NCBI GenBank assembly: GCA_964506575.1 | Contig: CAZDLY010000002.1 | Location: 64,440 to 128,439 of the forward strand | Origin: an uncultured Akkermansia sp. | GTDB lineage: Bacteria > Verrucomicrobiota > Kiritimatiellia > RFP12 > JAAYNR01 | Length of the DNA stretch: 64,000 bases | Reading direction: 5' to 3' | Part shown: piece after piece, positions 5,052 to 55,857 of the stretch | Position numbering within the stretch: position 1 is the stretch's first letter | Layout: the number at the start of each line of letters is the position of its first letter | Position numbers and translations under genes: made by a program | The notes under the pieces: generated by a model | Told to the model about the DNA's origin: nothing | What the model saw: only the letters and a program-made list of their open reading frames with translations | Databases searched by the model: none

Positions 5052-7244
5052 CTAGCGCAGCAGGTTGTCCAGCTCGCGAACCTGCCGCACGCTCAGTTGA
5101 TCGCGCCGCGTGTTCAGAAGCTCGAGAACCTGGCGGCAGGCCTGCGTCTGACCGCGCGCCTGCAAGGTCGTGGCCAACAGCAGGTCCAGATCGGGCGAGC
5201 GCAACGGCTCGGGTGTGTTGCGGATCAGATCGATCACCGCATCGGGCTGCTCTTGTTTCACGAGCACCCGGGCCAGCAGAAGATACGCATCGCCCGAGAC
5301 ATCCGGCTGCCGCAGGGCCGCCTCCAGGGTCGTCCGGGCCAGATCAGCCTGATCGGTGCGCCAATAGGCCTCGCCCATCGCCGTCAGGATCGGTCCGTTC
5401 GTGACAAACGTCAGCGTATGGGAGAGATGGATGACGGCCATGCGCAGGGACGAGCGCTTCAGCAGCGCCTGGCCCAGCACTTCATTCGCGCGCACATGCA
5501 ACGGATTGAGCTTGAGGATGGTCAGGCAATCGCGCTCCAATATGTTCCAGTCCTGCTTGGCGATCCCCGCCTCCAGCATCCAATCCCCGATGCGGTCCTG
5601 CTCCGGCAGGCCGCGCGGCAGCAGGCGTAAAAACAGAATGCGGGCCGAATCGAGATTGCGACCGCCACGCGCGAGCAGGATGCGTGCGCGAAGCAGATCC
5701 ATCCGGTCACGATTCAACGCCGGCCTCATTCTGGCCAGATGGGGCAGGATGACCCGTTCGACCTCGCCCGCACGGCCCTGATCCAGCAGGCGCATGGCCG
5801 ACACCGCCACCGCGGCCGCATCCGCCGACGCGTCGAAGACGAATGCCTCCGGTCGGGCCGCGCCTGTTCCCGCAGGATTCGTTACGCTACCATCCCTCAC
5901 CGTATATTCGTTCATACGAACGGGATTCACCACGTCCCAATTCAATCCGGGCTGAATCACGGCCACGGCGGCGGCCAGAATGAACCCGCCCGCGCCGAAC
6001 ACACGCAACAGGATCCAGCCGAACATCCCTTCCCGATCCGCGACGTCCGCAACGGAGTCGTCGTCAGCGGCATCGCCGCCGCGCGGACGATGAACCGTGG
6101 CCACCAGAAACCAGCGGCTGATGAAATAGCCCGCCGCAAACACAATCGCCAGCGCCGCGATGAGCGACACCTCTCCACGCCCCCGCCAGTCGGCACCCGG
6201 CGTGTAGGGAAAGTTCAGCAGCACCACGCCCAACGCACCCGTGCCCAACGTCAACAAGGCGAGCGTGCCCAGCCGGTGCTCGCGCTGATGGCTCAATGAG
6301 AGGCACAGCGCCAGAATGAACGGGATGCCGGCCCAGAGCATCGTCCACATCCAATGCGGTGATGAACCGACATCCTGCAGCGCGCCCAGATGGCCTGCCG
6401 CCATGGCGCGCACGACCCGCGACACCGGAATCGCCGATCCGAGCGATTCGCGCAGCAACAGCGAGGCGAGGCCCAGCTGCACCGCGAAGCCGAGGCAGGC
6501 GCTGCCGATGGCGGCCACGAAATAACGCTGGAACGGCAGCTCGAAATGGATGATGGCCCGCACATAAAAAAAGATCAGCGCACCCGCCACCGCCAGGAAG
6601 ACCGGGCTCTCCGCGATCCCGATCCCCGCCACCGCGCTGACCAGACAGGCGCCACCCAGAGACGGCCGCAAACCAAACGACGTGGTCAGCCAGACCGCGA
6701 CCAGCAGCAGCAGCGCATCGAACGCGCCCGGGCCGGCACGCGTGGCCATGATCCAGAATGACGCGCTGAAGGCATACACCAGCCCCGCGCCAATCGTTCC
6801 GATCGCGAGCGCCATCCGCTCCCGCCGTGTAAACTCCGCAATCATGAGACTCAGCGCCTCATGCGCGCTCCCGACCTGTGGCAGGGGCCTGTCGGGGTCC
6901 TCATTCCCCTGTAGCAGATAGAGCGTGGAAACATCGACCCGGCTCATCCCGCAGGCCAGCAGCCGCCTGAAAACGACCAGAAAGCCGCACAGACCGGCCC
7001 CCGAAAACAACGCGCTCAGCGCGTTGATCGTGGCCTCGGGATTGGCCAGCTTGAGCGCGACGGCCGAGCGGGCGCTCAGCAGCCACACCTGATGGAGCGC
7101 GATGGTCTGCGGATCCAGCTTCAGAACGAGTCCGCCCATTTCAGCGGGGAGCCCCGCGTGAAAGGCGTCGGACACGCAGAACAGCAGCAGAAAGGCCGCA
7201 TAGGCCAGACCCGCAACGATGGCCACAATCTGAAACAGCTTCAT
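5052..7244 (-). CDS. Polytopic membrane protein with C-terminal TPR-like repeats, function unknown
   Basis: 730 aa. The N-terminal ~450 aa contain many hydrophobic helices. The C-terminal ~250 aa are helical-repeat/TPR-like. The start overlaps the nadB stop by 4 nt. Confidence 0.6.
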   Translation of the reverse strand: MKLFQIVAIVAGLAYAAFLLLFCVSDAFHAGLPAEMGGLVLKLDPQTIALHQVWLLSARSAVALKLANPEATINALSALFSGAGLCGFLVVFRRLLACGMSRVDVSTLYLLQGNEDPDRPLPQVGSAHEALSLMIAEFTRRERMALAIGTIGAGLVYAFSASFWIMATRAGPGAFDALLLLVAVWLTTSFGLRPSLGGACLVSAVAGIGIAESPVFLAVAGALIFFYVRAIIHFELPFQRYFVAAIGSACLGFAVQLGLASLLLRESLGSAIPVSRVVRAMAAGHLGALQDVGSSPHWMWTMLWAGIPFILALCLSLSHQREHRLGTLALLTLGTGALGVVLLNFPYTPGADWRGRGEVSLIAALAIVFAAGYFISRWFLVATVHRPRGGDAADDDSVADVADREGMFGWILLRVFGAGGFILAAAVAVIQPGLNWDVVNPVRMNEYTVRDGSVTNPAGTGAARPEAFVFDASADAAAVAVSAMRLLDQGRAGEVERVILPHLARMRPALNRDRMDLLRARILLARGGRNLDSARILFLRLLPRGLPEQDRIGDWMLEAGIAKQDWNILERDCLTILKLNPLHVRANEVLGQALLKRSSLRMAVIHLSHTLTFVTNGPILTAMGEAYWRTDQADLARTTLEAALRQPDVSGDAYLLLARVLVKQEQPDAVIDLIRNTPEPLRSPDLDLLLATTLQARGQTQACRQVLELLNTRRDQLSVRQVRELDNLLR

Positions 7245-8949: not shown

Positions 8950-9040
8950 ATCACGAATCGGACGGATTGGAAGAGCGGACTTGCAGCTTTTTTCGTCCTC
9001 ATCGGATCGCAGACGAAACCTTTCTGAGGTGATTCACAGC

Positions 9041-10096
9041 ATGATCACGGTCAAAATCATCGGCGCCACGGGCTATGGCGGAGTCGGCATCATTGAATTG
9101 TTGCTCCAACACCCGCAGGCGCGCCTCGTGACCCTGGTTGCGCGGGAGGACATCGGCCTGCCCCTGAGCGCGGTGTATCCGCACCTGACCGGCTTCTGTG
9201 ACCTCCCCATCCTCGCCCCGGATGACCCCGCCGCCGCCGAACCGGCGGATGTCGTCTTCTACTCCACGCCGGATGGCGTAGGCATGACCCGCGCCCGCGC
9301 CGATCTTGCCGGCGGGTCCAAGATCATCGATTACAGCGGCGACTTCCGCTTCACCACGCCCGAAGCCTACGCGGATTACGCCACCCGCATCGGCCGCAAC
9401 CCCGTGCATGCCGCGCCGGACCTGCTCGGCGGCAACGCCTACGGCCTGGCCGAGCTTCACCGCGAGGAGATTCGCAACGCCCGGATCGTGGGCAACCCCG
9501 GCTGTTTTGCGGCCAGTTGCATCCTGGGCCTCGCGCCCGCCGCCCGCGCCGGCTTGATTGATCCATCCAGCGTCATCTGCGACTGCACGACCGGGGTGTC
9601 CGGGGCGGGCAAGAAAGTCGCGCCCACCTTTCACTACCCGGCCCGCTATGAGCAGTTGAACGCCTACAAGCTCGCCGGCCATCAGCATGTCTGCGAGGTC
9701 GAGCGCGAACTCACGCTCCTCGCGGGCCGTGAGCTGCGCGTCACGTTCACCGCACATGTGGCGCCCGTCTGCCGCGGCATCATGTCCACCCTCTACGGCA
9801 CGCTGACCGCGCCGCTGACCGAGGATCAGGCGCTCGAGTGCTACCGCGCGTTCTACGCCGGCAGCCCCTTTGTCCGCGTCTTCCCCAGCACCGCCGCCAT
9901 CGGCACGCTCCACGTCCGCGGCACGAACTTCTGCAACCTGGTCGTCAGCGTCGATCCCCGCACCAACCGGCTTCGGGTTGTCTCGTACATCGACAACCTG
10001 ATGAAGGGGCAGGCCGGTTCGGCGCTGCAGAACATGAATCTGATGTGTCACTGTGATGAAACCCTCGGTCTCAACCGTCCAGGAAACTACCCGTGA
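9041..10096 (+). CDS. argC: N-acetyl-gamma-glutamyl-phosphate reductase
   Basis: MITVKIIGATGYGGVGIIELL start and active-site GNPGCFA motif. About 351 aa. Confidence 0.9.
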   Translation: MITVKIIGATGYGGVGIIELLLQHPQARLVTLVAREDIGLPLSAVYPHLTGFCDLPILAPDDPAAAEPADVVFYSTPDGVGMTRARADLAGGSKIIDYSGDFRFTTPEAYADYATRIGRNPVHAAPDLLGGNAYGLAELHREEIRNARIVGNPGCFAASCILGLAPAARAGLIDPSSVICDCTTGVSGAGKKVAPTFHYPARYEQLNAYKLAGHQHVCEVERELTLLAGRELRVTFTAHVAPVCRGIMSTLYGTLTAPLTEDQALECYRAFYAGSPFVRVFPSTAAIGTLHVRGTNFCNLVVSVDPRTNRLRVVSYIDNLMKGQAGSALQNMNLMCHCDETLGLNRPGNYP

Positions 10097-11130
10097 GTAA
10101 AAAGAAAATCGCGCCCGCGCAAAAAAAACCGGCCGCATCCCCCGCTGCCAAAGGACGCCACGGCTTGGGCCGCGGTCTGGGCGCGCTCATCAGCGCCGTG
10201 CCCGCATCCGTTGACGCCGCACACGCGCCGACTGCGACCGCCGTTCCGGCGCCTGAGACTGCGTCAGCGACACCCCCCGCCGCTCCCCTGCCCCTGCCGC
10301 CGGGCCAGCAATCGGTGCAGTCCCTCCCCGTGGGCGAAATCGCGCGCTGCCCGTGGCAGCCCCGTTCCGTCTTCGATCAGGAGGCGCTGCGCGAGCTCGC
10401 CGACTCGATCAAGGCTCACGGCGTGATCCAGCCGCTCATCTGCCGCACATCGGCAGGCGGAGGCTTTGAGCTGATCGCCGGCGAACGCCGCCTGCGCGCG
10501 GCGATCGAAGCCGGACTTGGCCGTGTGCCGGTGATCGTCCTCGATGCCGCCGACCGTGACGCCGCCGAGATGGCCGTCATCGAAAACATCCAGCGCGAAG
10601 ACCTCAACGTCATCGAGGAGGCCGAGGGCTATCGCACCCTCGCGGAGACCTTCAACCTGACCCAGCAGGAGGTCGCCGATCGTGTCGGCAAGTCGCGCCC
10701 CGCCGTCGCCAACGCCCTGCGCCTCCTCGACCTGCCTGACGAGGTCAAACAACTGCTCTCGTCGAGCTTGCTTTCCACCGGCCATGCCAAAGTCCTGCTC
10801 GGCATCGCCGATCCCGTCGAGCAGACCCTCCTCGCGCACAAGTGCCTGACCGAGGGCATGACCGTCCGCAGCCTGGAACGCCTGGTGCTTCGACGCAAGA
10901 ACGCCCGGAACGCCGACGCCCTCGCGCGACTGCCCAAGCCCGACATGCCCGAGGCTCACCTCCGGGATCTCGCGGACCGCATGAACCGCCACTTCGGCAC
11001 CCATGTCCGCCTCACCGCCAGCCAGACCTACGCCAACGGCAAACGGGCCAAGGGCTGCATCGAAATCGACTTCTACGACAACGACGACCTCGACCGCCTC
11101 CTCTCGCTCCTCGGCATCACCGTGGACTGA
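10093..11130 (+). CDS. parB: ParB/Spo0J-type chromosome partitioning protein (no adjacent parA)
   Basis: GLGRGLGALI box, ParB N-domain IQPLICR…ELIAGERRLRAA (CTP-binding GERR box), an HTH region and a C-terminal dimerisation-like tail. The GTG start overlaps the argC stop (GTGA). Confidence 0.85.
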   Translation: MSKKKIAPAQKKPAASPAAKGRHGLGRGLGALISAVPASVDAAHAPTATAVPAPETASATPPAAPLPLPPGQQSVQSLPVGEIARCPWQPRSVFDQEALRELADSIKAHGVIQPLICRTSAGGGFELIAGERRLRAAIEAGLGRVPVIVLDAADRDAAEMAVIENIQREDLNVIEEAEGYRTLAETFNLTQQEVADRVGKSRPAVANALRLLDLPDEVKQLLSSSLLSTGHAKVLLGIADPVEQTLLAHKCLTEGMTVRSLERLVLRRKNARNADALARLPKPDMPEAHLRDLADRMNRHFGTHVRLTASQTYANGKRAKGCIEIDFYDNDDLDRLLSLLGITVD

Positions 11131-11162
11131 TGATGTGATGAGCGGCTGCAAGGAGAGACAGG

Positions 11163-11369
11163 ATGTCCGTAGACATGTCCTCCCAAGCGATCACCACTCG
11201 TCTGCGCTGCGTGAGCGATTTACGCCGCGTCTGCCGGGCGCTTTCCGTTCGCGTGCCGCCAACGGAAGTGCGGGAGGGGGAGACCGGTTACGCCGCCCGG
11301 CCGCACTCACGCACGGAAACCCGCCCACGCTGTGAAGCCGACGGTATCCCCTGTGCAGACGGAGACTGA
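11163..11369 (+). CDS. Hypothetical small protein (68 aa), uncertain
   Basis: The ATG is preceded by AAGGAG with a 7-nt spacer. There is no recognisable family, and third-position GC is only moderately elevated. Confidence 0.25.
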   Translation: MSVDMSSQAITTRLRCVSDLRRVCRALSVRVPPTEVREGETGYAARPHSRTETRPRCEADGIPCADGD

Positions 11370-11393
11370 ACGAGGTATCAGACCGGGTACCGG

Positions 11394-11978
11394 CTAAAAC
11401 TGAATGATCGAAATCTGCAGCAACCCGTTGCTGCAGACGCTTTTGGAAATGCGCTTTTTTTCGCCAACCGGGAGCCGCAGCCGCACGCGTGAAGTCTTCC
11501 CCGTACCCGCGCCGGAGCAGATGAAGAGAACATCCCCGGTGAGCGTCAAGTCCATCTCATCCAGATCCCAGCCGGGAAGCCGGCAGGTCACGCGGTAGCC
11601 TTCGTCGGTCTCTTCCACGTTGATCCCAGGTGCGGACGGCGCCATCAGCCACTCTCCCTGTACCACGCCTCCCTCGGACCACGCACGCATCCGATTATCC
11701 CGCTTCGCTGCCAAGCCTCCGTAGGAAACCCATTCGGATGCGGTTGGAATCGCCACCGCATGCTGGCGCGCCATCCGCACCTGTTCCTGAATCGGATACT
11801 GAATGGCGGCGTGCGAACCCTCCCCACCGCCACCTCGCCCTTTCGGCGCGCCGCGCCGATCCGATACCGCCCGGACGAACAGATACAGGCTCAGCAAAAC
11901 AGAGCCGGCCACCAACAGACGATCGGCCCAGTCCCACACATTCCGTTGATCCCACCGTCTCACGATCATCCCTTTCAC
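11394..11978 (-). CDS. Membrane-anchored Hsp20/alpha-crystallin domain protein
   Basis: The C-terminal ~90 aa match the alpha-crystallin pattern (INVEETDEGYRVTCRLPGWDLDEMDLTLTGDVLFI…LRLPVGEKKRISKSVCSNGLLQISI). The N-terminus has one hydrophobic helix (LLVAGSVLLSLYLFV). The ORF starts with GTG at 11978; an alternative ATG lies at 11969. Confidence 0.7.
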   Translation of the reverse strand: MKGMIVRRWDQRNVWDWADRLLVAGSVLLSLYLFVRAVSDRRGAPKGRGGGGEGSHAAIQYPIQEQVRMARQHAVAIPTASEWVSYGGLAAKRDNRMRAWSEGGVVQGEWLMAPSAPGINVEETDEGYRVTCRLPGWDLDEMDLTLTGDVLFICSGAGTGKTSRVRLRLPVGEKKRISKSVCSNGLLQISIIQF

Positions 11979-12007
11979 CGGTCACCGTCCGTCTGCGCAG
12001 CAAAAAT

Positions 12008-12023
12008 AGCAGAATATGTGCCA
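12008..12023 (-). promoter_or_regulatory. Sigma-54 (-24/-12) promoter match upstream of the Hsp20-like gene
   Basis: The minus strand reads TGGCAC-ATATT-CTGCT with GG-N10-GC spacing. The predicted TSS is about 20-30 nt upstream of the start codon. Confidence 0.6.
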
Positions 12024-12067
12024 CCCGGGGCACCCTTGATCCCGTTGGCGGCTGCGTATGCCAGTCA

Positions 12068-12102
12068 GACAAGATGTCCGACAGTGACACGACAAAATGT
12101 CG
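12068..12102. promoter_or_regulatory. Cluster of GACA/TGTC half-sites (candidate enhancer-binding-protein UAS)
   Basis: The sequence is GACAagaTGTCcGACAgtGACAcGACAaaaTGTCg. It includes the inverted repeats TGTC-c-GACA and CGACA-aaa-TGTCG. It lies roughly 70-110 nt upstream of both predicted sigma-54 start sites. Confidence 0.4.
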
Positions 12103-12155
12103 CATGCAATCACCCAAATATGCTACATTTGTTCCCCGTCAGCGGATTTCTGACA

Positions 12156-12171
12156 CGGCACACCCCTTGCT
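12156..12171 (+). promoter_or_regulatory. Sigma-54 (-24/-12) promoter match upstream of the histidine kinase/response regulator operon
   Basis: cGGCAC-ACCCC-TTGCT with GG-N10-GC spacing. The predicted TSS is near 12181, so the true kinase start may be the second Met at 12217. Confidence 0.55.
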
Positions 12172-12186
12172 GGATACGAGACACGC

Positions 12187-13542
12187 ATGGCCTTGACACG
12201 TCACATCGATAAGAGCATGCCTCGCCGCTCCTCGCTGGCGTGGCAGGCCTCCGCCATTCTGGCCTTTGCCGCCGTGGCGGCCGGTCTGGGGCTCTTTTGG
12301 CTTCATCGCTTTCAGGCGCACGTGGCCCATGTCGACGCGACCCGCTCGGTGCTTGCGCAGGGGGATCGGCTGATGGATCTGCTGGCCGACCCGGGCACTC
12401 TGGCGAACAGCACCAACATGACCGCCACTGAATGGCGCCTGTTTGGCGCGCATGTAGAGGGACTCCGCGCGGCGCAGGCCGAGTTGGAATTCGTCTCGAT
12501 CACGCATGGCGGCGAAACTGTCTTTCACCGGCAGATTCCCGATCGGTCACCGCATCCGCATGTGCCCGTGCCCTCCCGCACCTCCGTCTCGACCCTCAAC
12601 ATCCCCACCGGTCCGGACGCGACGACTCCGGTGATGGTCTTCACGCGAACCGTCATCCTTCCCGACCGGACCGAAGCGACTGTGGAGATCGGGTTTGACG
12701 CCGGGGTTGTCGACGCGGCCGAATCGAGCGCCTCGCGTTCAATCCGCACGCTCCTGCGCTTCTCAGCGGTCGCCGTCGCCGCCGCGTTTGGCTTTTGCCT
12801 GCTGCTGGTCATCGCCGTCGTCCGCCACGACCTGGCCCGGCAGGCGCGGGGCCGGCGCGAGGAGCACCTCGCCTTTTCGGGCGTCCTGGCCAATGGCATC
12901 GTCCACGATTTCCGCAATCCGATGTCCTCCGTGAAGCTCGACGCCCAGATGCTTGCCCGCGAGGCCGACCGCGATGGCGGGCCCCGCCCCGCGCGCCTGG
13001 CCGAGCTGGCCGGCCGCATCGGCCGCACCGTTGAACGGATGGATCAGGTGTTCAAGGAGTTCCTCTATCTGGCCAGACCCGATCACGAGGCGTTCGAGAC
13101 CGTCGCGCTGGCGGCGTGCATCCGCGAATGTGTCGAGACCCTCGCCCCGCGTCTCGAGGCGGCGGGCGTGGTGATTGAAGCCGCGCCCACGCCGCTGGGC
13201 GTCCGCGCCGCGCCATTTGCCCTGCGCCGCGCGCTCCTCAACGTGCTCACCAACGCCGTGCAGTTCTCGCCCCGCGGCGGCACGGTCGGGGTGGTCTGCG
13301 CGGCCCAGGGTTCGTCCGTCCGCATCGACATCGCCGACCGCGGCCCCGGCGTGCCGCCGCGCGACCGTGAGCGCATTTTTGAGATGTTTGTCTCGTCCCG
13401 CCCGGAAGGGACGGGTCTCGGCCTCTTCCTCGCCCGCACCGCCCTGCGCAAGTGCGGCGGCGACATCATCGCGCGGCCGCGGGAGGGCGGCGGCTCGATC
13501 TTCAGGATCACCCTCCCGGCCGGCACGGAGACCGCGTCATGA
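12187..13542 (+). CDS. Sensor histidine kinase (two TM helices, periplasmic sensor, HisKA + HATPase_c)
   Basis: H-box [13 protein letters not shown]-box [12 protein letters not shown] and G-boxes DRGPGV / GTGLGL. Two hydrophobic segments flank a ~150-aa presumed periplasmic domain. Confidence 0.85.
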
Positions 13543-14885
13543 AGCCTGTGATTCTGATTGTTGAAGATGACCCCGACGGCGCGCGCTCGATGATCGACGC
13601 CGCCGAGGACGCCGGGTTCGCGACCGTACTCGCCGGGACTGCCGCCAAGGGTCTCGAATGCTTCCGCGAGCAGACGCCCGACCTCGTGCTCACCGATCTC
13701 GTCCTGCCCGACTTCGACGGCATCGAGCTGCTGGCCCGGATCAAGCGGATCAACGCCGCGATCCCGGTGATGGTCATGACGGCGTACGGCTCGGTCGAGT
13801 CATCCGTCAAGGCGATGCGCGCCGGCGCCTATGACTACGTGATCAAGCCGCTCGACCTCGACGACATCCAGTCCAAGCTCCGACGGGCCGCCGAGACCAG
13901 CCGTTTGCGCCGCGAGGTCACCACGCTCGCCGCCTCGGCCCGCGCCCGGCACACCGCCGCGACGATGGTCGCCGAGTCGCCCGCCATGCGGGCGGTGATC
14001 AGCCAGATCGAGGCGCTGGCCGACACCACCGCGACGGTGCTGATCCAGGGCGAGTCCGGAACCGGCAAGGAACTGGTGGCCCGGGCGCTGCACGCCGACA
14101 GCCGGCGTGCCGACGCCCCCTTTGTCGCGGTCAACTGCGGCGCTTTTGCCGAGTCGCTCCTCGAATCGGAACTGTTCGGCCATGAGAAGGGCGCCTTCAC
14201 CGGCGCCGCCACCCGCCATGCGGGCGCCTTTGAACGGGCCGATGGGGGCACGCTCTTCCTCGATGAGATCGGCGACGCCCCGCCCTCTGTCCAGGTCAAG
14301 CTCCTCCGCGCCATCGAAGAGCGCGAAATCCACCGCGTCGGCGGACGCGAGCCCTTTGCCGTCAACGTCCGCCTCGTTTCCGCGTCCAACAAAGATCTGG
14401 CCGGGCGTGTCGCCGAGGGGGCGTTCCGCGAAGACCTGCTGTACCGGTTGAATGTCGTCACCATCTCCCTGCCGCCCCTTCGCCGCCGCCGGGAGGACAT
14501 CCGTCCGCTCGCCGACCGCTTCATCGCTCGCGCCGCCGCCGACCATGGCCATGCCATCACCGGGATCGATTCCGCCTTCTACACGCGGCTCGAAGCCTAC
14601 GACTGGCCCGGCAATATCCGCCAGCTCCGCAACGTCATCGAGTCGGCCGTCCTGCTCACCTCGGGCACCCACCTTCGCGCCGAGTCCCTCGCCCTTCCCG
14701 GCGATACCCTCCCCCGGGCCGCACCCGCCTTTCCGGAGAACCTCACACTCGCCGCCATCGAGCGCCTCGTCCTCGAACAAACCCTCGCCCGCTGCGACGG
14801 CAACCGCACCCTCACCGCGGAGAAACTCGGCATCTCCATCCGCACCATCCAGCGCAAGATCAAAGAACACAACCTTCCATTCTGA
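13539..14885 (+). CDS. Sigma-54-dependent response regulator (NtrC family: REC + AAA+ + Fis-type HTH)
   Basis: REC domain (ILIVEDDPD…[11 protein letters not shown]), Walker A GESGTGKE, the sigma-54 contact motif GAFTGA and a C-terminal HTH ([17 protein letters not shown]). The ATGA overlaps the kinase stop. Confidence 0.9.
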
Positions 14886-14894
14886 GTGATCCTG

Positions 14895-14910
14895 TGGCAT
14901 ACTTTCTGCT
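14895..14910 (+). promoter_or_regulatory. Sigma-54 (-24/-12) promoter match upstream of the ABC/Bat gene array
   Basis: TGGCAT-ACTTT-CTGCT with GG-N10-GC spacing, 45 nt upstream of the ABC ATPase ATG. A strong AAGGAG SD lies in the leader. Confidence 0.6.
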
Positions 14911-14954
14911 TTTTCAAATCCGTTGATTGATGTCCCCACGCAAGAAGGAGAATC

Positions 14955-15698
14955 ATGCTAACCGTCACGAACCTGAAGAAGAGCTTCGGCCCGTTTCAGG
15001 CAGTCAAGGGGGTGAGCTTCACCGTGAAAAAAGGTGAGGTGCTCGGCTTTCTTGGCCCCAACGGCGCCGGCAAGACCACCACGATGCGGATGATCACCGG
15101 CTTTCTGGCGCCCAGCGATGGCACAGCCGAGGTCTGCGGCTGCGATATCCGGCGGGATCCCGTCGGCGCCAAGCGGAGCATCGGCTATCTGCCCGAAAAC
15201 GCCCCGAGCTACCACGCGATGACCGTCGTGGACTTTCTCGACTTCGCCGCCCGCATCCGCGGCTACACCGGATCCGAACGGCGGGATCGCCTCGACCGGG
15301 CGATCGTTCAGGCGCGACTGGAGAGCGTCCGCGACCAGACGATCGAAACCCTCTCCAAGGGTTACCGCCAGCGCACCTGCTTCGCCCAGGCCATCCTGCA
15401 TGACCCGCCCGTGCTGATCATGGACGAACCGACCGATGGACTCGACCCGAACCAGAAATACGTGGTCCGGGAGATGATCCGCACCATGTCGGCCGAGAAG
15501 GCGATCATCATTTCGACGCACATCCTCGAAGAGGTGGACGCTGTCTGCACCCGCGCAGTGATCATCGCCAGCGGCGCGATCGTCGCCAACGGCACCCCGG
15601 CCGAGTTGAAGGCCCAGGACCCCTCCGGCCGCCTGGACGAGGTGTTCCGCAAACTGACCCTGACCGGAGAGGAGAAGACCCGCCATGTCCGTTCGTAA
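14955..15698 (+). CDS. ABC transporter ATP-binding protein (ABC-2 / GldA-like subfamily)
   Basis: Walker A GPNGAGKTT, signature LSKGYRQR and Walker B VLIMDEPTDGLD. Confidence 0.9.
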   Translation: MLTVTNLKKSFGPFQAVKGVSFTVKKGEVLGFLGPNGAGKTTTMRMITGFLAPSDGTAEVCGCDIRRDPVGAKRSIGYLPENAPSYHAMTVVDFLDFAARIRGYTGSERRDRLDRAIVQARLESVRDQTIETLSKGYRQRTCFAQAILHDPPVLIMDEPTDGLDPNQKYVVREMIRTMSAEKAIIISTHILEEVDAVCTRAVIIASGAIVANGTPAELKAQDPSGRLDEVFRKLTLTGEEKTRHVRS

Positions 15699-16422
15699 TA
15701 TCCAGACGCTTTTCCGGCGCGAGTTCCGGTCCTATTTTCATTCCCCGGTGGCCTGCGTGTTCCTGGTCGCCTTCCTGATCCTGGTGAATTTCCTGACCTT
15801 CCGCGTCTCGTCGTTCTACGAGGTTCGCCAGGCGTCGCTGGAGCGCTTCTTCATGTGGCACCCGTGGGTCTACCTGCTGCTCGTCCCCGCCTCGACGATG
15901 GGACTGTGGGCCGAGGAGCGCCGCACCGGAACGCTGGAGCTGCTGCTGACCTTTCCGGTTACGCTCACCGAGACGCTCATCGGCAAGTTTATGGCCGCCT
16001 GGGCGTTCATTGCGATCGGGTTGGCCTGCACCTTCCCGATCGTCCTCACGGTCGGCTGGCTCGGGTCGCCCGATTTCGGCGTGATCGCCAGCGGTTATGT
16101 CGGGTCACTGCTGCTCGCCGGGGCCAGTGTCGCCATCGGCGCCTTCGCCTCGTCGCTCACCCGCAGCCAGGTCATCAGCTTCGTTGCGGCGCTCAGCGCC
16201 TGCCTCCTGTTGACGCTCGCGGGATTCGAGCCGGTGACAGGGCTGTTTGCTTCGTGGGCGCCGTGGCTGGCCAACGCCATCGCCGCGTGCAGCCTCCTCT
16301 ATCACTTCAACGCCCTGTGCCGCGGCGTCCTCGACGTCGCCGACATCGCCTACTACCTGAGCGTGATCGTCTTCATGCTGGCCGCCGCGCACCTGGTCAT
16401 TGACAACCGCAAGGCGTCGTAA
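15685..16422 (+). CDS. ABC-2 type permease (GldF/NosY-like)
   Basis: 245 aa with about 6 hydrophobic helices. It overlaps the ATPase gene by 14 nt. Confidence 0.8.
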   Translation: MSVRNIQTLFRREFRSYFHSPVACVFLVAFLILVNFLTFRVSSFYEVRQASLERFFMWHPWVYLLLVPASTMGLWAEERRTGTLELLLTFPVTLTETLIGKFMAAWAFIAIGLACTFPIVLTVGWLGSPDFGVIASGYVGSLLLAGASVAIGAFASSLTRSQVISFVAALSACLLLTLAGFEPVTGLFASWAPWLANAIAACSLLYHFNALCRGVLDVADIAYYLSVIVFMLAAAHLVIDNRKAS

Positions 16423-16452
16423 CCCGTATCAACCCCTTTTTGGACAACTGCC

Positions 16453-18360
16453 ATGAATACCTTCAAACGAATCTCTTCCGGCGTCGCGGGTCTCGCACTG
16501 CTTCTGGTCAGTCTCGGCGGCGCGTGCGTGATCATCACCAACCTGCGCATCCGCGCCGACCTGACGGAGGAGCGGCTCTTCACCCTCTCCCGCGGTTCGC
16601 GCGACCTGGTCTCCAAGCTCGACCAGGACGTCACGCTGAAATTCTACTTCAGCACCTCCTCGTCTGAAGTTCCCAACATGATCAAGATCTATGCGCGTCA
16701 CGTGCAGGACTTTCTGCGTGAATACGAGTTGGCAGGAAAGGGCCGGGTCATCATCGAGACCTATGATCCCAAATCCGACTCCGACGAGGAGGAATGGGCG
16801 CAGAAATTCGGCGTGGCTCCTCAGACGCTCTCGCCCTTCGCGCCGCCGTTCTATTTCGGCCTGGTGGCCGTCTGCGGCGGGCGCGAGAATGCCATCCCGG
16901 CCTTCTCGCCCGCCACGGAGCGCACGCTGGAATTCGAGGTCTCACGCCTCATCGCCCGTGTCGCATGGCCCGAAAAACCGGTCATTGGCGTCATGAGCCC
17001 GTTCAGTGTCCTGGGCGGCGGCGACCCGATGCAACGGATGATGGGCCGCAACCGTCAGGCGGATCCGGCTTGGGCCGCCTTCGCCGAACTGCAACGCGAC
17101 TACACCCTTCGCGCAGTCACTCCCGATGCCGCCCGGATTGATGACGACATCACGACGCTGGTGCTGGTCCACCCGAAGAACCTGTCGAATCAGGCCCTCT
17201 TCGCCATCGACCAGTTTGTCCTCCGCGGCGGGCGCCTCCTGGCCTGTCTCGATCCCTTCAGCGTTCAGGACTTCAGGGCCTCCCAGGCACAGGGCCTGAT
17301 GATGAGCATGCAGGGACCTGCAGGCCCCGGCCCCTCCACGCTGGGCAAACTCCTGGATGCCTGGGGCGTCGGATTTGATCCTACCAAGGTTCTGGCCGAC
17401 ATGCGCGCCATCACCCGGCTCGATGGCGGAAACGGAAGCATTGATGAAAATCCCGTCGTGCTTTCCCTGTCCGCAAAGAACGCCGCCGCGTCCGAGGTCC
17501 TCACCGCCCAGCTCAAACAACTGATTTTTCCGTTTGCCGGCGTGTTCACGGAGAAGTCGGCCCCGGGGATCACCTATACGCCGCTGATCACGTCATCGGA
17601 CAACGCCTGCCTGGTCGACACGATGGCGGCCCAATATGGCACGGCCATGCTGCGCAACCAGCTTAAGCCCGACGGTCTGAAACACACACTGGCCGTCCGG
17701 TTGGCGGGTACATTCAAGACCGCCTTCCCCGCGGGCGCGCCGGCCGATGAGAACCCCGGCCCCGATGGCGCCAAAAAGCCTGCCGATCCGTCGCCGAAGC
17801 CCCCCCTGACTTCCGGTACGGGCGCCGTGGTGCTGATTGGCGATTCGGACTTCCTGGCCGACGGTTGGAGCGTGCGCACCTCCTCGTTCTTTGGATACCA
17901 GACCACCGAGGCGATTAATGACAACCTAGCCCTGCTGGCCAACGCGGTCGAGCAACTCGCCGGACGCAGCGAGCTGATCGCCATCCGCTCGCGCGGCAAT
18001 TCCACGCGCCCCTTCACGGTGGTTGACGAACTGGAATATCAGGCGCTCATGAAATGGAGCGAGACCGAGAAGGCTTTGCAGTTCAAGCTCGACGAGACGC
18101 GCGCCCGCCTCGCGGAGATGCAAAAGCAGAAGCAGGGCAAGCAACGCGCGATCCTCACGGCCGAGCAGGAAAAGGCCATTGCCACGTTTCAAGCGGAGGA
18201 ACGCAGCACCAACCGCCAGCTCAAGGACCTGCGCCGGTCGCTCAACGCCGACATCGAAAACCTGGGGGTTCGGGTGAAATCGATCAACATCGCGCTCATG
18301 CCCGCGCTGATTGTGGTGGCATCCTTCACACGGTTATGGATCCGCCGCCGTCGCGGCTAG
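16453..18360 (+). CDS. GldG-like ABC transporter auxiliary protein
   Basis: 635 aa with N- and C-terminal TM anchors and a large periplasmic domain. The position after the GldA/F-like pair is typical, and there is a coiled-coil segment before the last TM. Confidence 0.75.
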   Translation: MNTFKRISSGVAGLALLLVSLGGACVIITNLRIRADLTEERLFTLSRGSRDLVSKLDQDVTLKFYFSTSSSEVPNMIKIYARHVQDFLREYELAGKGRVIIETYDPKSDSDEEEWAQKFGVAPQTLSPFAPPFYFGLVAVCGGRENAIPAFSPATERTLEFEVSRLIARVAWPEKPVIGVMSPFSVLGGGDPMQRMMGRNRQADPAWAAFAELQRDYTLRAVTPDAARIDDDITTLVLVHPKNLSNQALFAIDQFVLRGGRLLACLDPFSVQDFRASQAQGLMMSMQGPAGPGPSTLGKLLDAWGVGFDPTKVLADMRAITRLDGGNGSIDENPVVLSLSAKNAAASEVLTAQLKQLIFPFAGVFTEKSAPGITYTPLITSSDNACLVDTMAAQYGTAMLRNQLKPDGLKHTLAVRLAGTFKTAFPAGAPADENPGPDGAKKPADPSPKPPLTSGTGAVVLIGDSDFLADGWSVRTSSFFGYQTTEAINDNLALLANAVEQLAGRSELIAIRSRGNSTRPFTVVDELEYQALMKWSETEKALQFKLDETRARLAEMQKQKQGKQRAILTAEQEKAIATFQAEERSTNRQLKDLRRSLNADIENLGVRVKSINIALMPALIVVASFTRLWIRRRRG

Positions 18361-18397
18361 ACAGTCAATCTGGAAAGTCAGGAGACACACACCAGCC

Positions 18398-19483
18398 ATG
18401 AAAAAAGCAAAACTGTTCGGACTTGTCCTCGCTGCCGTCGTCCTCGGGCTTCTGGCCTCGTGGACGGGGCGATCCCGTCAACCGCAAAAACCGGGGCAAC
18501 TCGGAAAACCCGTCCTGCCCGGCCTGTCAATCAACGCCATCGGGCGCATCGAGATCGCGCAGCAGAGCAAGACCGTCACACTGGCCAATACCGATGAGGG
18601 ATGGGTGGTGCCGTCGCTCTACAATTACCCGGCCGACGTCGCCAGGATTCGCGAGAACCTGCTCGCGCTTCGCGATCTCAAGATCGGAGCCGTGCAGCGG
18701 GGCGCCAGGATCGACAGCACCAATGCCACGCTCGTCGATCTCCAGGATGAACGCGGCAAACCGCTTGCCTCCATCCGTCTGGGCGATGTCCGCACCAGGC
18801 CCAACTCGCAATATGGATGGGACATTCCCGATGGCCGCTCGGTTGCGGCCAACGCCAACGACACGGTCTATCTCGTCAAGGAGTCGTTGAGCGCCTTTGA
18901 GCCCGATGCCAAGTCGTGGGTCAACACCGAGGTGTTGAACGTGCAGGCGTCGGACGTCGCCCGGGTCGTGCTATCGGGTCCGGACGGCGCGGCGACCCTG
19001 GATCGTTCGTCGGGTGCGCTTACGCTCACCGGGCTTGCCGAAGGCGAATCCTGCGACGCCTCAAAAGTGTCCGGCGTCGCGTCCGCCCTGGGCTATCTCC
19101 GGTTTTCCGATCTCGCCGACCCCGCGCTCACCGATGCGCAGACCGGCGTGGCCACGGGCCACACCTTCACCGTGACCACCACCGACGGGACGATCTATGC
19201 CGCCCGCATCGGCGCCGCCGCGCCGGACCGCAGCGACCGTTATCTCCGGATCGCCGTCAGCGCGCAGCCGGTCTCCACCAACGCCGCCGAGCGGGCGTCG
19301 GTGACGCAGCAGGCGGCCGAGCTCAACCGATCGGTCAGCCCCTGGCTCTTTCTGATCTCTTCCTGGAACGCCGACAACATGACCCGTTCCCGCGCCTATT
19401 TCATCCAGGCTCCCACGCCGCCCCCCGCATCACCGGAGCCTCCGCCCGAACGCGCTCCCGAGGTGCCCGCCGCCGGATCCTGA
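18398..19483 (+). CDS. DUF4340-like secreted/anchored protein
   Basis: MKKAKLFGLVLAAVVLGLLASW signal/anchor with GGAG upstream. The position downstream of gldG is typical of DUF4340. The C-terminal tail is Pro-rich. Confidence 0.55.
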   Translation: MKKAKLFGLVLAAVVLGLLASWTGRSRQPQKPGQLGKPVLPGLSINAIGRIEIAQQSKTVTLANTDEGWVVPSLYNYPADVARIRENLLALRDLKIGAVQRGARIDSTNATLVDLQDERGKPLASIRLGDVRTRPNSQYGWDIPDGRSVAANANDTVYLVKESLSAFEPDAKSWVNTEVLNVQASDVARVVLSGPDGAATLDRSSGALTLTGLAEGESCDASKVSGVASALGYLRFSDLADPALTDAQTGVATGHTFTVTTTDGTIYAARIGAAAPDRSDRYLRIAVSAQPVSTNAAERASVTQQAAELNRSVSPWLFLISSWNADNMTRSRAYFIQAPTPPPASPEPPPERAPEVPAAGS

Positions 19484-54807: not shown

Positions 54808-55857
54808 TTACGCAGACTGCCGTAATTCCTTAATGCGGTTAATAATCAGGCGGATCGTTATCAAGAAGTGGTGGCTAAAATGCTTCCTGGGTGTGCAAAA
54901 CTGCACAAGCAGCGAAATCGGATCTTTAGCAATAGCTGTTTGCTTGAACCACTTCCACCACACAATAAAATTCCTATGAGCAAGGCATCCCAGCGGATAC
55001 CAAGGTTTCGGCAACCCTGGAAAATGCAGAATGGTTCTTTCCATATCGATTGCACTGACCGCGTCATATTGTGGAAACAAAAGACGGTTCCAAGAATCGT
55101 CCAATGATTGGACACTGCCGCCGAGTACAAGGTTCAGCACAGTTTGGTCAGGACATAATAAAGAATCGTTTTCGAATTTCTTAAAATATAGCAAACAACA
55201 TGATTCGACCTGCATGACACGCCATTTTGCTAATGAAGCAAAGAAAATGCCGGAATGAAAATAATTGCAAGCCTGCTGCTCAGATGCGAGTGCAGCACTC
55301 AGAATGGCATAATCCGGAGAATGCTCTTGAAGAGAAGTCATATTTGCCATTATTGCTGAGTCATTATCGGTCAAACCGAGAAGTTCATTTACATCTCGCA
55401 AGACAAGCAAATCACAATCCAAATATAGACAATAATCGTAGTCTGAAAGAAGTGTTGCAAGAAATATTCTTGCGTTTGCCGTCATGTTCCCGTGAAACGA
55501 AGGAATACCGACAGGCCAAGAGATGGATAGTTCTTTAATCTCAAAAGTGTGAAAACTTCCCGACTTTGACACAGTCTGGAAGAGTAATCTCTTTTCGCGC
55601 TTCGTTAGTTTGTCAGAAAACACAATAACATGTAATGGCTTCGATTTGGCATAGTATAATAACGAAGCTAAAGCTGCATGTAGCCCACATAGCATCCATC
55701 GGTCTGAAAAAAACACGACCGTCAACTTTTGTTGATTGATATACACACGAAACTCCAAACTTTCTACACAATGAGCAGTGGTCACAGAACTACGCCAAAT
55801 GGTTGGATCTGGGCGGCACGCCTTACCATCCGCAACCCGCGTCGGTGGGCGATTCAT
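54808..55857 (-). CDS. Glycosyltransferase family 8
   Basis: VVFFSDRWMLCGLHAALASLL N-terminus, YLDCDLLVLRDVNEL DxD region and a later HFPGLPKPW motif. The start is uncertain because the first ~40 codons are GC-richer than the rest. Confidence 0.7.
   Translation of the reverse strand: MNRPPTRVADGKACRPDPTIWRSSVTTAHCVESLEFRVYINQQKLTVVFFSDRWMLCGLHAALASLLYYAKSKPLHVIVFSDKLTKREKRLLFQTVSKSGSFHTFEIKELSISWPVGIPSFHGNMTANARIFLATLLSDYDYCLYLDCDLLVLRDVNELLGLTDNDSAIMANMTSLQEHSPDYAILSAALASEQQACNYFHSGIFFASLAKWRVMQVESCCLLYFKKFENDSLLCPDQTVLNLVLGGSVQSLDDSWNRLLFPQYDAVSAIDMERTILHFPGLPKPWYPLGCLAHRNFIVWWKWFKQTAIAKDPISLLVQFCTPRKHFSHHFLITIRLIINRIKELRQSA

Follow-up and report, generated by a model that had tools for sequence, protein, structure and literature searches.

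Within a 64,000-nucleotide stretch of contig CAZDLY010000002.1 from an uncultured Akkermansia sp. (the whole of which is called the window below), we identified what is likely a self-contained sigma-54-dependent two-component circuit of uncultured Planctomycetes-Verrucomicrobia-Chlamydiae (PVC)-type bacteria, equipped with a membrane-held effector. The effector gene (11394..11978, minus strand) encodes a 194-amino acid membrane-anchored protein of small heat-shock protein (sHSP) type, or 191 amino acids if translation starts at the ATG at 11969, where gene callers elsewhere place the start. Divergent from it lie a sensor histidine kinase gene with HisKA and HATPase_c domains (12187..13542, plus strand) and the gene of an NtrC-family response regulator (13539..14885, plus strand), the start of which overlaps the kinase stop. 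The 208-bp gap between the divergent effector and kinase genes is the control region. Judged by its sequence, this arrangement is probably a circuit dedicated to membrane or envelope stress, of a kind not yet described. We place considerable confidence in the regulatory part of the proposal, and the functional part, i.e., a role of the effector as a holdase or membrane stabilizer, stands at about even.

Two opposed sigma-54-type promoters occupy the control region, both with exact GG-N10-GC spacing. The effector promoter, TGGCACATATTCTGCT (TGGCAC-ATATT-CTGCT; 12023..12008, minus strand), predicts a transcription start at ~11997, and the kinase/regulator promoter, CGGCACACCCCTTGCT (CGGCAC-ACCCC-TTGCT; 12156..12171, plus strand), one at ~12182. 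Both had been named in the original prediction, a reading of the bare DNA letters whose coordinates for the gap elements all proved correct when the sequence was read again. Scanning of the 64-kb window with the strict pattern TGGCACN5TTGCW, allowing at most one mismatch, returned two matches, both inside the 208-bp gap and each facing its gene. This count is itself near expectation (~2.1); the improbable part is that both fall in one gap, each facing its gene, where ~0.003 matches per strand are expected by our own arithmetic from the chance rate. The looser pattern YGGCRYN5YTGCT matched four times in the window versus 0.92 expected, and three of the four are promoters of the module, including a third one discussed below. 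The fourth, CGGCATTTTCTTTGCT (55237-55252, minus strand), lies within a 349-amino acid open reading frame (ORF) and is probably a chance match. A consensus scan of 11000-15200 revealed no sigma-70-like promoter, and no terminator found in the same examination accounts for the region either. Rfam families were absent from the window and from three related loci.

The kinase ATG (12187) is only ~5 nt past the predicted transcription start, and the distance from the promoter end to the kinase ATG is likewise 15-18 nt in three related loci (L006, L013, and L014). The kinase mRNA is either nearly leaderless or translated from the second Met (12217). Near the kinase start of another locus, L010, positions 5621-5670 hold a ~24-bp tandem duplication (aatagggacggttctccgaaccgt, twice).

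Between the two promoters, the six GACA/TGTC half-sites previously pointed out at 12068..12102 are indeed present and resolve into two 11-bp palindromes, GACAAGATGTC (12068-12078) and GACAAAATGTC (12091-12101), 23 bp apart. We regard them as predicted activator sites, neither with an assigned strand. The site distal to the kinase promoter (GACAAGATGTC, 12068..12078) corresponds to the conserved second copy of GCGACA-N3-TGTCGC, whereas the proximal one extends to ACGACAAAATGTCGC (12089..12103), the window's best match to GCGACAN3TGTCGC, with a single mismatch. GACAN3TGTC occurs three times in the window (0.76 expected), two of them in this gap. Other genomes keep only those of the six half-sites that belong to the two palindromes; the central GACA copies (12080 and 12086) are not conserved. 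The tandem palindrome is found once per locus and is confined to the effector-kinase gap. The third exact GACA-N3-TGTC palindrome of the window, GACAGGATGTC (11157-11167), overlaps the ATG (11163) of a 68-amino acid ORF with no Pfam hit, flanked on one side by parB and on the other by the effector gene's 3' end; this palindrome may be due to chance or be a further site of the same regulator. Most loci also carry a GTCAAGC box ~4-8 bases from the first palindrome, on the side of the kinase promoter (~5804-5810 in L010, ~5836-5842 in L011, ~1592-1598 in L012, and equivalent spots in L013-L018), which is absent from the window and L006. This box could be an extra half-site or the site of a bending protein.

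The control region is conserved in 15 nonredundant loci of uncultured relatives, some labelled Kiritimatiellia or Lentisphaerales. All 15 keep the same order, i.e., kinase-side promoter, palindrome, palindrome, effector-side promoter. In the other loci, the kinase-side promoter reads CGGCAC-N5-YTGCT and the effector-side promoter TGGCnn-N5-CTGCT. In 14 loci, the kinase promoter is separated from the first GCGACA-N3-TGTCGC by a fixed distance, 45-46 bp or, in the window's own clade, 55 bp, and the palindromes are spaced by 20-23 bp, while the interval between the second palindrome and the effector promoter varies from 55 to 308 bp. The effector promoter precedes the effector start by ~15-45 nt in the 15 loci, some of these distances being estimates. 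Such a recurrent layout of promoters and palindromes excludes chance as its origin.

The genes themselves travel together. The sHSP-kinase-regulator triad is conserved in related genomes wherever the effector family occurs with enough flanking sequence, and at every such locus the effector gene diverges from orthologues of the kinase and regulator genes. Identity to the window proteins is 50-54% for the kinase, 70-76% for the regulator, and 20-30% for the effector. The outer neighbors vary by locus (parB, trpA, an ArsP permease, and queC): the module adjoins argC and parB in the window (8981-11130) and in L006, and trpA, the ArsP permease gene, or queC in other species. Since these neighbors differ between species, the triad has moved as a unit. 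The effector family is small, with 21 representatives among 1.84 billion in an all-against-all HMMER search and 36 clusters (90% identity) in a set of 5.8 billion proteins. A scan of the GTDB representative genomes with an alignment of close effector homologues gave no match; the same genomes scanned with a tighter subfamily alignment yielded five loci. One family member is labelled "Kiritimatiellia bacterium" and one genome locus "Lentisphaerales". Record names, the only source in this respect (lake and ELA metagenome-assembled genomes), suggest anoxic fresh water as the habitat of the family.

The regulator has the complete NtrC-family domain set, with a receiver (Response_reg, 1.1e-25), an AAA+ sigma-54-interaction domain (Sigma54_activat, 3.7e-70), and a Fis-type helix-turn-helix (HTH_8, 1.1e-12). 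The GAFTGA loop and the Walker A motif read in it earlier are both there (GAFTGA and GESGTGK), and PspF models match its AAA+ core. Against NCBIfam models it scores 457 bits for AtoC, 427 for NtrC, 422.7 for ZraR (NF007689, cut-off 760), and 342 for GlrR (cut-off 763). The AtoC, NtrC, and ZraR scores all lie far under the respective cut-offs, with AtoC and NtrC above ZraR; the regulator is thus no orthologue of ZraR or of any other named regulator. The kinase consists of two membrane helices flanking a ~150-amino acid periplasmic domain, followed by HisKA and HATPase_c. Its best NCBIfam match is ZraS (NF007688), at 134.3 bits (cut-off, 479) and with no coverage ahead of the second membrane helix; orthology to ZraS is thereby ruled out as well. 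The N-terminal sensor part is conserved among the kinase orthologues. A protein search with the N-terminal 225 amino acids of the kinase gave no match, probably because alanine-rich words swamped the candidates.

A further component, overlooked in the original prediction, is the third sigma-54-type promoter, TGGCATACTTTCTGCT (TGGCAT-ACTTT-CTGCT; 14895-14910, plus strand), which begins ten bases past the regulator stop codon. It ends 45 nt before the start codon (14955) of an ABC ATPase gene, with an AAGGAG ribosome-binding site in between. By Pfam, this ATPase is followed by an ABC-2 permease, a GldG-like auxiliary protein (ABC_transp_aux with DUF7088), and a DUF4340 protein (14955..19483, plus strand), together a possible further target of the circuit. 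This operon comes after the regulator gene in the window, in L006, L011, L013, L014, and L019-L021, and on the P0025 contig, but not in L010 or L017, and the promoter is kept before it in L006, L011, L013, and L014. The leader between the operon promoter and the ABC start is ~110-140 nt long in L011, L013, and L014, with similar 3' ends and no Rfam match, and only ~34 nt long in the window and L006.

Family and predicted fold alike show that the effector carries a genuine, if minimal, alpha-crystallin domain, preceded by a single membrane helix. The protein comprises a short N-tail, the helix (about residues 12-41), a disordered linker (~43-117), and the domain. In an AlphaFold2 model built from a 35-sequence alignment, the helix spans 11-42 and the disordered stretch 49-117, followed by a seven-strand sandwich forming the alpha-crystallin domain (119-193; predicted local distance difference test scores of 73-89). 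HSP20 and ArsA_HSP20 are its only Pfam matches. The protein alone scores 17.4 bits (E = 0.005) against HSP20 (PF00011), short of the gathering cut-off of 20.8 bits, and a profile search of PDB sequences was not significant; the domain call therefore depends on hits of the family as a whole and on the fold predicted. HSP20 is matched by 14 of 19 family members at an E value of ≤0.01 (best, 1.3e-11), and precomputed Pfam annotation lists PF00011 for many relatives. Most of the 21 representatives have a C-terminal domain joined by a linker to a hydrophobic helix at the N terminus. Each of the 50 best Foldseek matches in the PDB is either the alpha-crystallin domain of an sHSP or the HSP20-like domain of Get3d, with Sulfolobus Hsp20.1 giving the highest TM-score (4rzk_A; TM-score, 0.72; root-mean-square deviation, 2.6); a second model and its Foldseek comparison agreed. 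The description of this protein as a single-pass membrane sHSP is borne out by the predicted helix, the family hits, and the fold, its own Pfam score staying below the cut-off. That score and the PDB profile search are also what favors the most skeptical explanation, namely, that the promoter and palindrome matches are accidental and the 194-amino acid ORF is no real alpha-crystallin protein. Conservation of every element in 15 loci, the HSP20 hits of the family, and the exclusively sHSP or Get3d fold matches refute it, and we give it practically no weight.

Outside the alpha-crystallin domain, the linker carries conserved motifs (REVDxGRVGVRPVSF and W..RGV.P.EW). In two more distant relatives, P0018 and P0020, which likewise combine a membrane helix with an alpha-crystallin domain, a C-terminal extension is retained that terminates in an IXI-like motif (VLRLF and AIRLW); as intermediates, these proteins may bridge canonical sHSPs and the minimal form.

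These features can be assembled into the following scheme. Through its ~150-amino acid periplasmic domain, the kinase would sense an extracytoplasmic or membrane condition and, as its intact domains suggest, phosphorylate the NtrC-type regulator. The latter would bind the two conserved GCGACA-N3-TGTCGC palindromes, which lie about two helical turns apart, and activate the sigma-54 RNA polymerase at both of the conserved divergent -24/-12 promoters. One promoter would drive the kinase/regulator operon itself, amounting to positive autoregulation, and the other the monocistronic gene of the membrane-anchored alpha-crystallin protein. Judging from its family, the effector would most likely act at the inner membrane as an ATP-independent holdase or membrane stabilizer. 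In what is the weakest step, the third promoter probably puts the ABC-2/GldG-like operon under sigma-54 control as well, and the same regulator may act on it from a distance.

Several observations weigh against this scheme. No RpoN-box protein is encoded in the 64-kb window. The kinase sensor domain has no significant match in Pfam or among PDB sequences. There is no copy of the palindrome near the third promoter, and this weakens its tie to the neighboring regulator. The effector model lacks the beta6 dimerization loop of bacterial and plant sHSPs, with only ~8 residues between strands 150-155 and 163-168, and the protein ends at its last strand (..LLQISIIQF) with no C-terminal extension bearing an I-X-I/V motif. 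Finally, counts of lysine plus arginine in the 15 residues on each side of the effector helix are effectively tied (2.36 versus 2.44 in 45 family members) and thus favor neither orientation in the membrane.

Having no palindrome nearby, the third promoter must rely either on the shared sites 2.8 kb upstream or on a different activator. Taken further, the promoters could all be real but driven by some other enhancer-binding protein (e.g., that of a general sigma-54 heat-shock regulon), the adjacency of the regulator gene being merely historical. At least one promoter may indeed use another activator or a distant site, and sigma-54-associated chaperone genes, including COG0071, are reported to be enriched in Planctomycetota (PMC12316311). 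Nonetheless, the tandem palindrome keeps a fixed distance (45-55 bp) from the promoter of the regulator itself and is confined to this gap, the triad is kept in all loci over deep divergence, and the window holds no bacterial enhancer-binding protein signature other than that of the regulator. We therefore consider an unrelated activator very improbable and retain the adjacent regulator as the predicted activator of the two divergent promoters.

For assembly, canonical sHSPs use the beta6 loop as well as an IXI tail at the C terminus. With both missing here, and with most effector relatives ending in ..LRVCVAK with no extension, the usual oligomeric chaperone activity is not assured. This makes room for the main rival to a holdase or stabilizer, in which the effector would mainly be an accessory kinase regulator, a third component that would damp or tune signaling by contact with the kinase, in the membrane or the periplasm, as ZraP/CpxP do, its chaperone role being secondary. 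Such a function would suit a domain devoid of the elements for canonical oligomers, the strict pairing of the effector with the kinase and regulator at every locus while outer neighbors change, and the conserved linker motifs, which suggest a specific partner. ZraP acts as a chaperone and also represses ZraSR (work cited in PMC4987338). However, the effector (20-30% identity) evolves far faster than the kinase (~50%), and, depending on how the effector is oriented, the extracytoplasmic parts of the two proteins may not share a compartment. On balance, we judge the accessory role rather unlikely and favor direct action of the effector on proteins or the membrane.

Orientation itself is difficult to read from charge. 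The first helix of the kinase has 3.6 lysine plus arginine residues on its periplasmic flank versus 2.9 on the cytoplasmic flank, though an N-in topology is required; since it breaks the positive-inside rule locally, the rule is no guide in this lineage. The cysteine counts of the effectors, mostly 1-3, are uninformative in this respect, and the bacteria that carry them may be anaerobes. Because of the charge tie in the effector and the tolerance for arginine-rich periplasmic flanks at the kinase first helix, we tentatively entertain, as a possibility short of an even chance, an alpha-crystallin domain that lies in the periplasm, anchored in the inner membrane, whose production is switched on by a dedicated sigma-54 two-component system and which feeds back on the periplasmic domain of the kinase like ZraP/CpxP. 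The alpha-crystallin fold is not known to work outside the cytoplasm, and a periplasmic holdase of the sHSP type would be a first in bacteria. It would represent an independent invention of the sensor-plus-periplasmic-chaperone design from a cytoplasm-type fold and would extend the repertoire of chaperones known to act outside the cytoplasm.

Whichever side the domain faces, the analysis delineates a small, previously unnamed family of alpha-crystallin proteins that are anchored in the membrane and linked to a sensor system of their own. It also provides a fully predicted sigma-54 unit (promoters, activator sites, and spacing) in uncultured PVC-type bacteria, in whose lineages, as far as we know, stress signaling is almost a blank. 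The circuit has few parts and could be rebuilt in Escherichia coli, which has sigma-54, and would there show how a membrane-fixed sHSP-type domain works without the elements that build oligomers. In the literature that we searched, the coverage of which was incomplete, neither a transmembrane sHSP of bacteria nor an sHSP-kinase-regulator triad was found to be described. A mycobacterial sHSP, Acr3, may have a membrane segment, for which the same literature gave no confirmation.

Among known systems, the closest in layout is Zra of E. coli and Salmonella, in which zraP, the gene of an envelope-stress chaperone, is divergent from the sigma-54-dependent zraSR genes and the intervening gap is where the regulator is believed to act (PMC4987338). 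The module shares with ZraPSR the divergent sigma-54 promoters with predicted regulator sites in a common gap and a kinase built from two membrane helices, a periplasmic domain, HisKA, and HATPase. In contrast, its kinase and regulator fall far under the ZraS and ZraR equivalog cut-offs, its periplasmic sensor domain is unrelated by sequence, and a third sigma-54-type promoter and a transporter operon are attached. Where Zra has a soluble periplasmic protein of the ZraP/CpxP/Spy type, the module has a membrane-anchored alpha-crystallin protein; the HSP20/ArsA_HSP20-only Pfam hits and the alpha-crystallin beta-sandwich fold rule out that the effector belongs to the ZraP/CpxP/Spy type. The earlier designation of the module as Zra-like consequently stands for the divergent sigma-54 layout and fails for the orthology of kinase, regulator, and effector, three of the four defining features.

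In the Psp system, pspF is divergent from pspABCDE, i.e., a sigma-54 activator lies beside the promoter for an inner-membrane stress effector. PspF lacks a receiver domain, and its control depends on PspA binding rather than on a kinase. The module resembles Psp in that a sigma-54 activator gene neighbors the divergent sigma-54 promoter of a membrane-associated effector, but this effector has no PspA/IM30 domain and the regulator does have a receiver.

Small heat-shock genes under sigma-54 control are, as such, already known. E. coli ibpB has a sigma-54 promoter. In a 2025 survey, COG0071 is among the sigma-54-associated chaperone genes enriched in Planctomycetota (PMC12316311). These cases have in common with ours an Hsp20-family gene behind a -24/-12 promoter; however, they concern sHSPs that are soluble, reside in the cytoplasm, have N- and C-terminal arms, and are not known to be accompanied by a dedicated kinase/regulator pair, whereas the protein described here has a membrane helix, no IXI tail, and its own sensor system. 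A link of alpha-crystallin proteins to membranes also has precedents: the membrane-associated sHSPs Lo18 of Oenococcus and Hsp17 of Synechocystis are proposed to stabilize membranes and proteins (PMC11269701, PMC2629775). Both are soluble, peripheral lipid binders, unlike the present family with its predicted integral membrane helix, and sHSPs have been stated to carry neither a signal sequence nor a transmembrane region (PMC2629775).

With respect to the binding sites, the nearest parallel is GlrKR (QseEF), another sigma-54-dependent two-component system with TGTC/GACA half-sites, for which the GlrR site is tabulated as TGTC-N10-GACA (PMC4987338). At a spacing of 21 bp, the inner half-sites of the tandem palindromes read exactly TGTC-N10-GACA. 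The units conserved here are nevertheless GCGACA-N3-TGTCGC at a spacing of 20-23 bp, and the regulator reaches only 342 bits against the GlrR cut-off of 763. To conclude, the module resembles Zra or Psp in design only and, as far as its sequence can be read, is a variant of a known circuit type, set apart by an unnamed effector family, an unmatched sensor domain, and an attached transporter operon with a sigma-54-type promoter.

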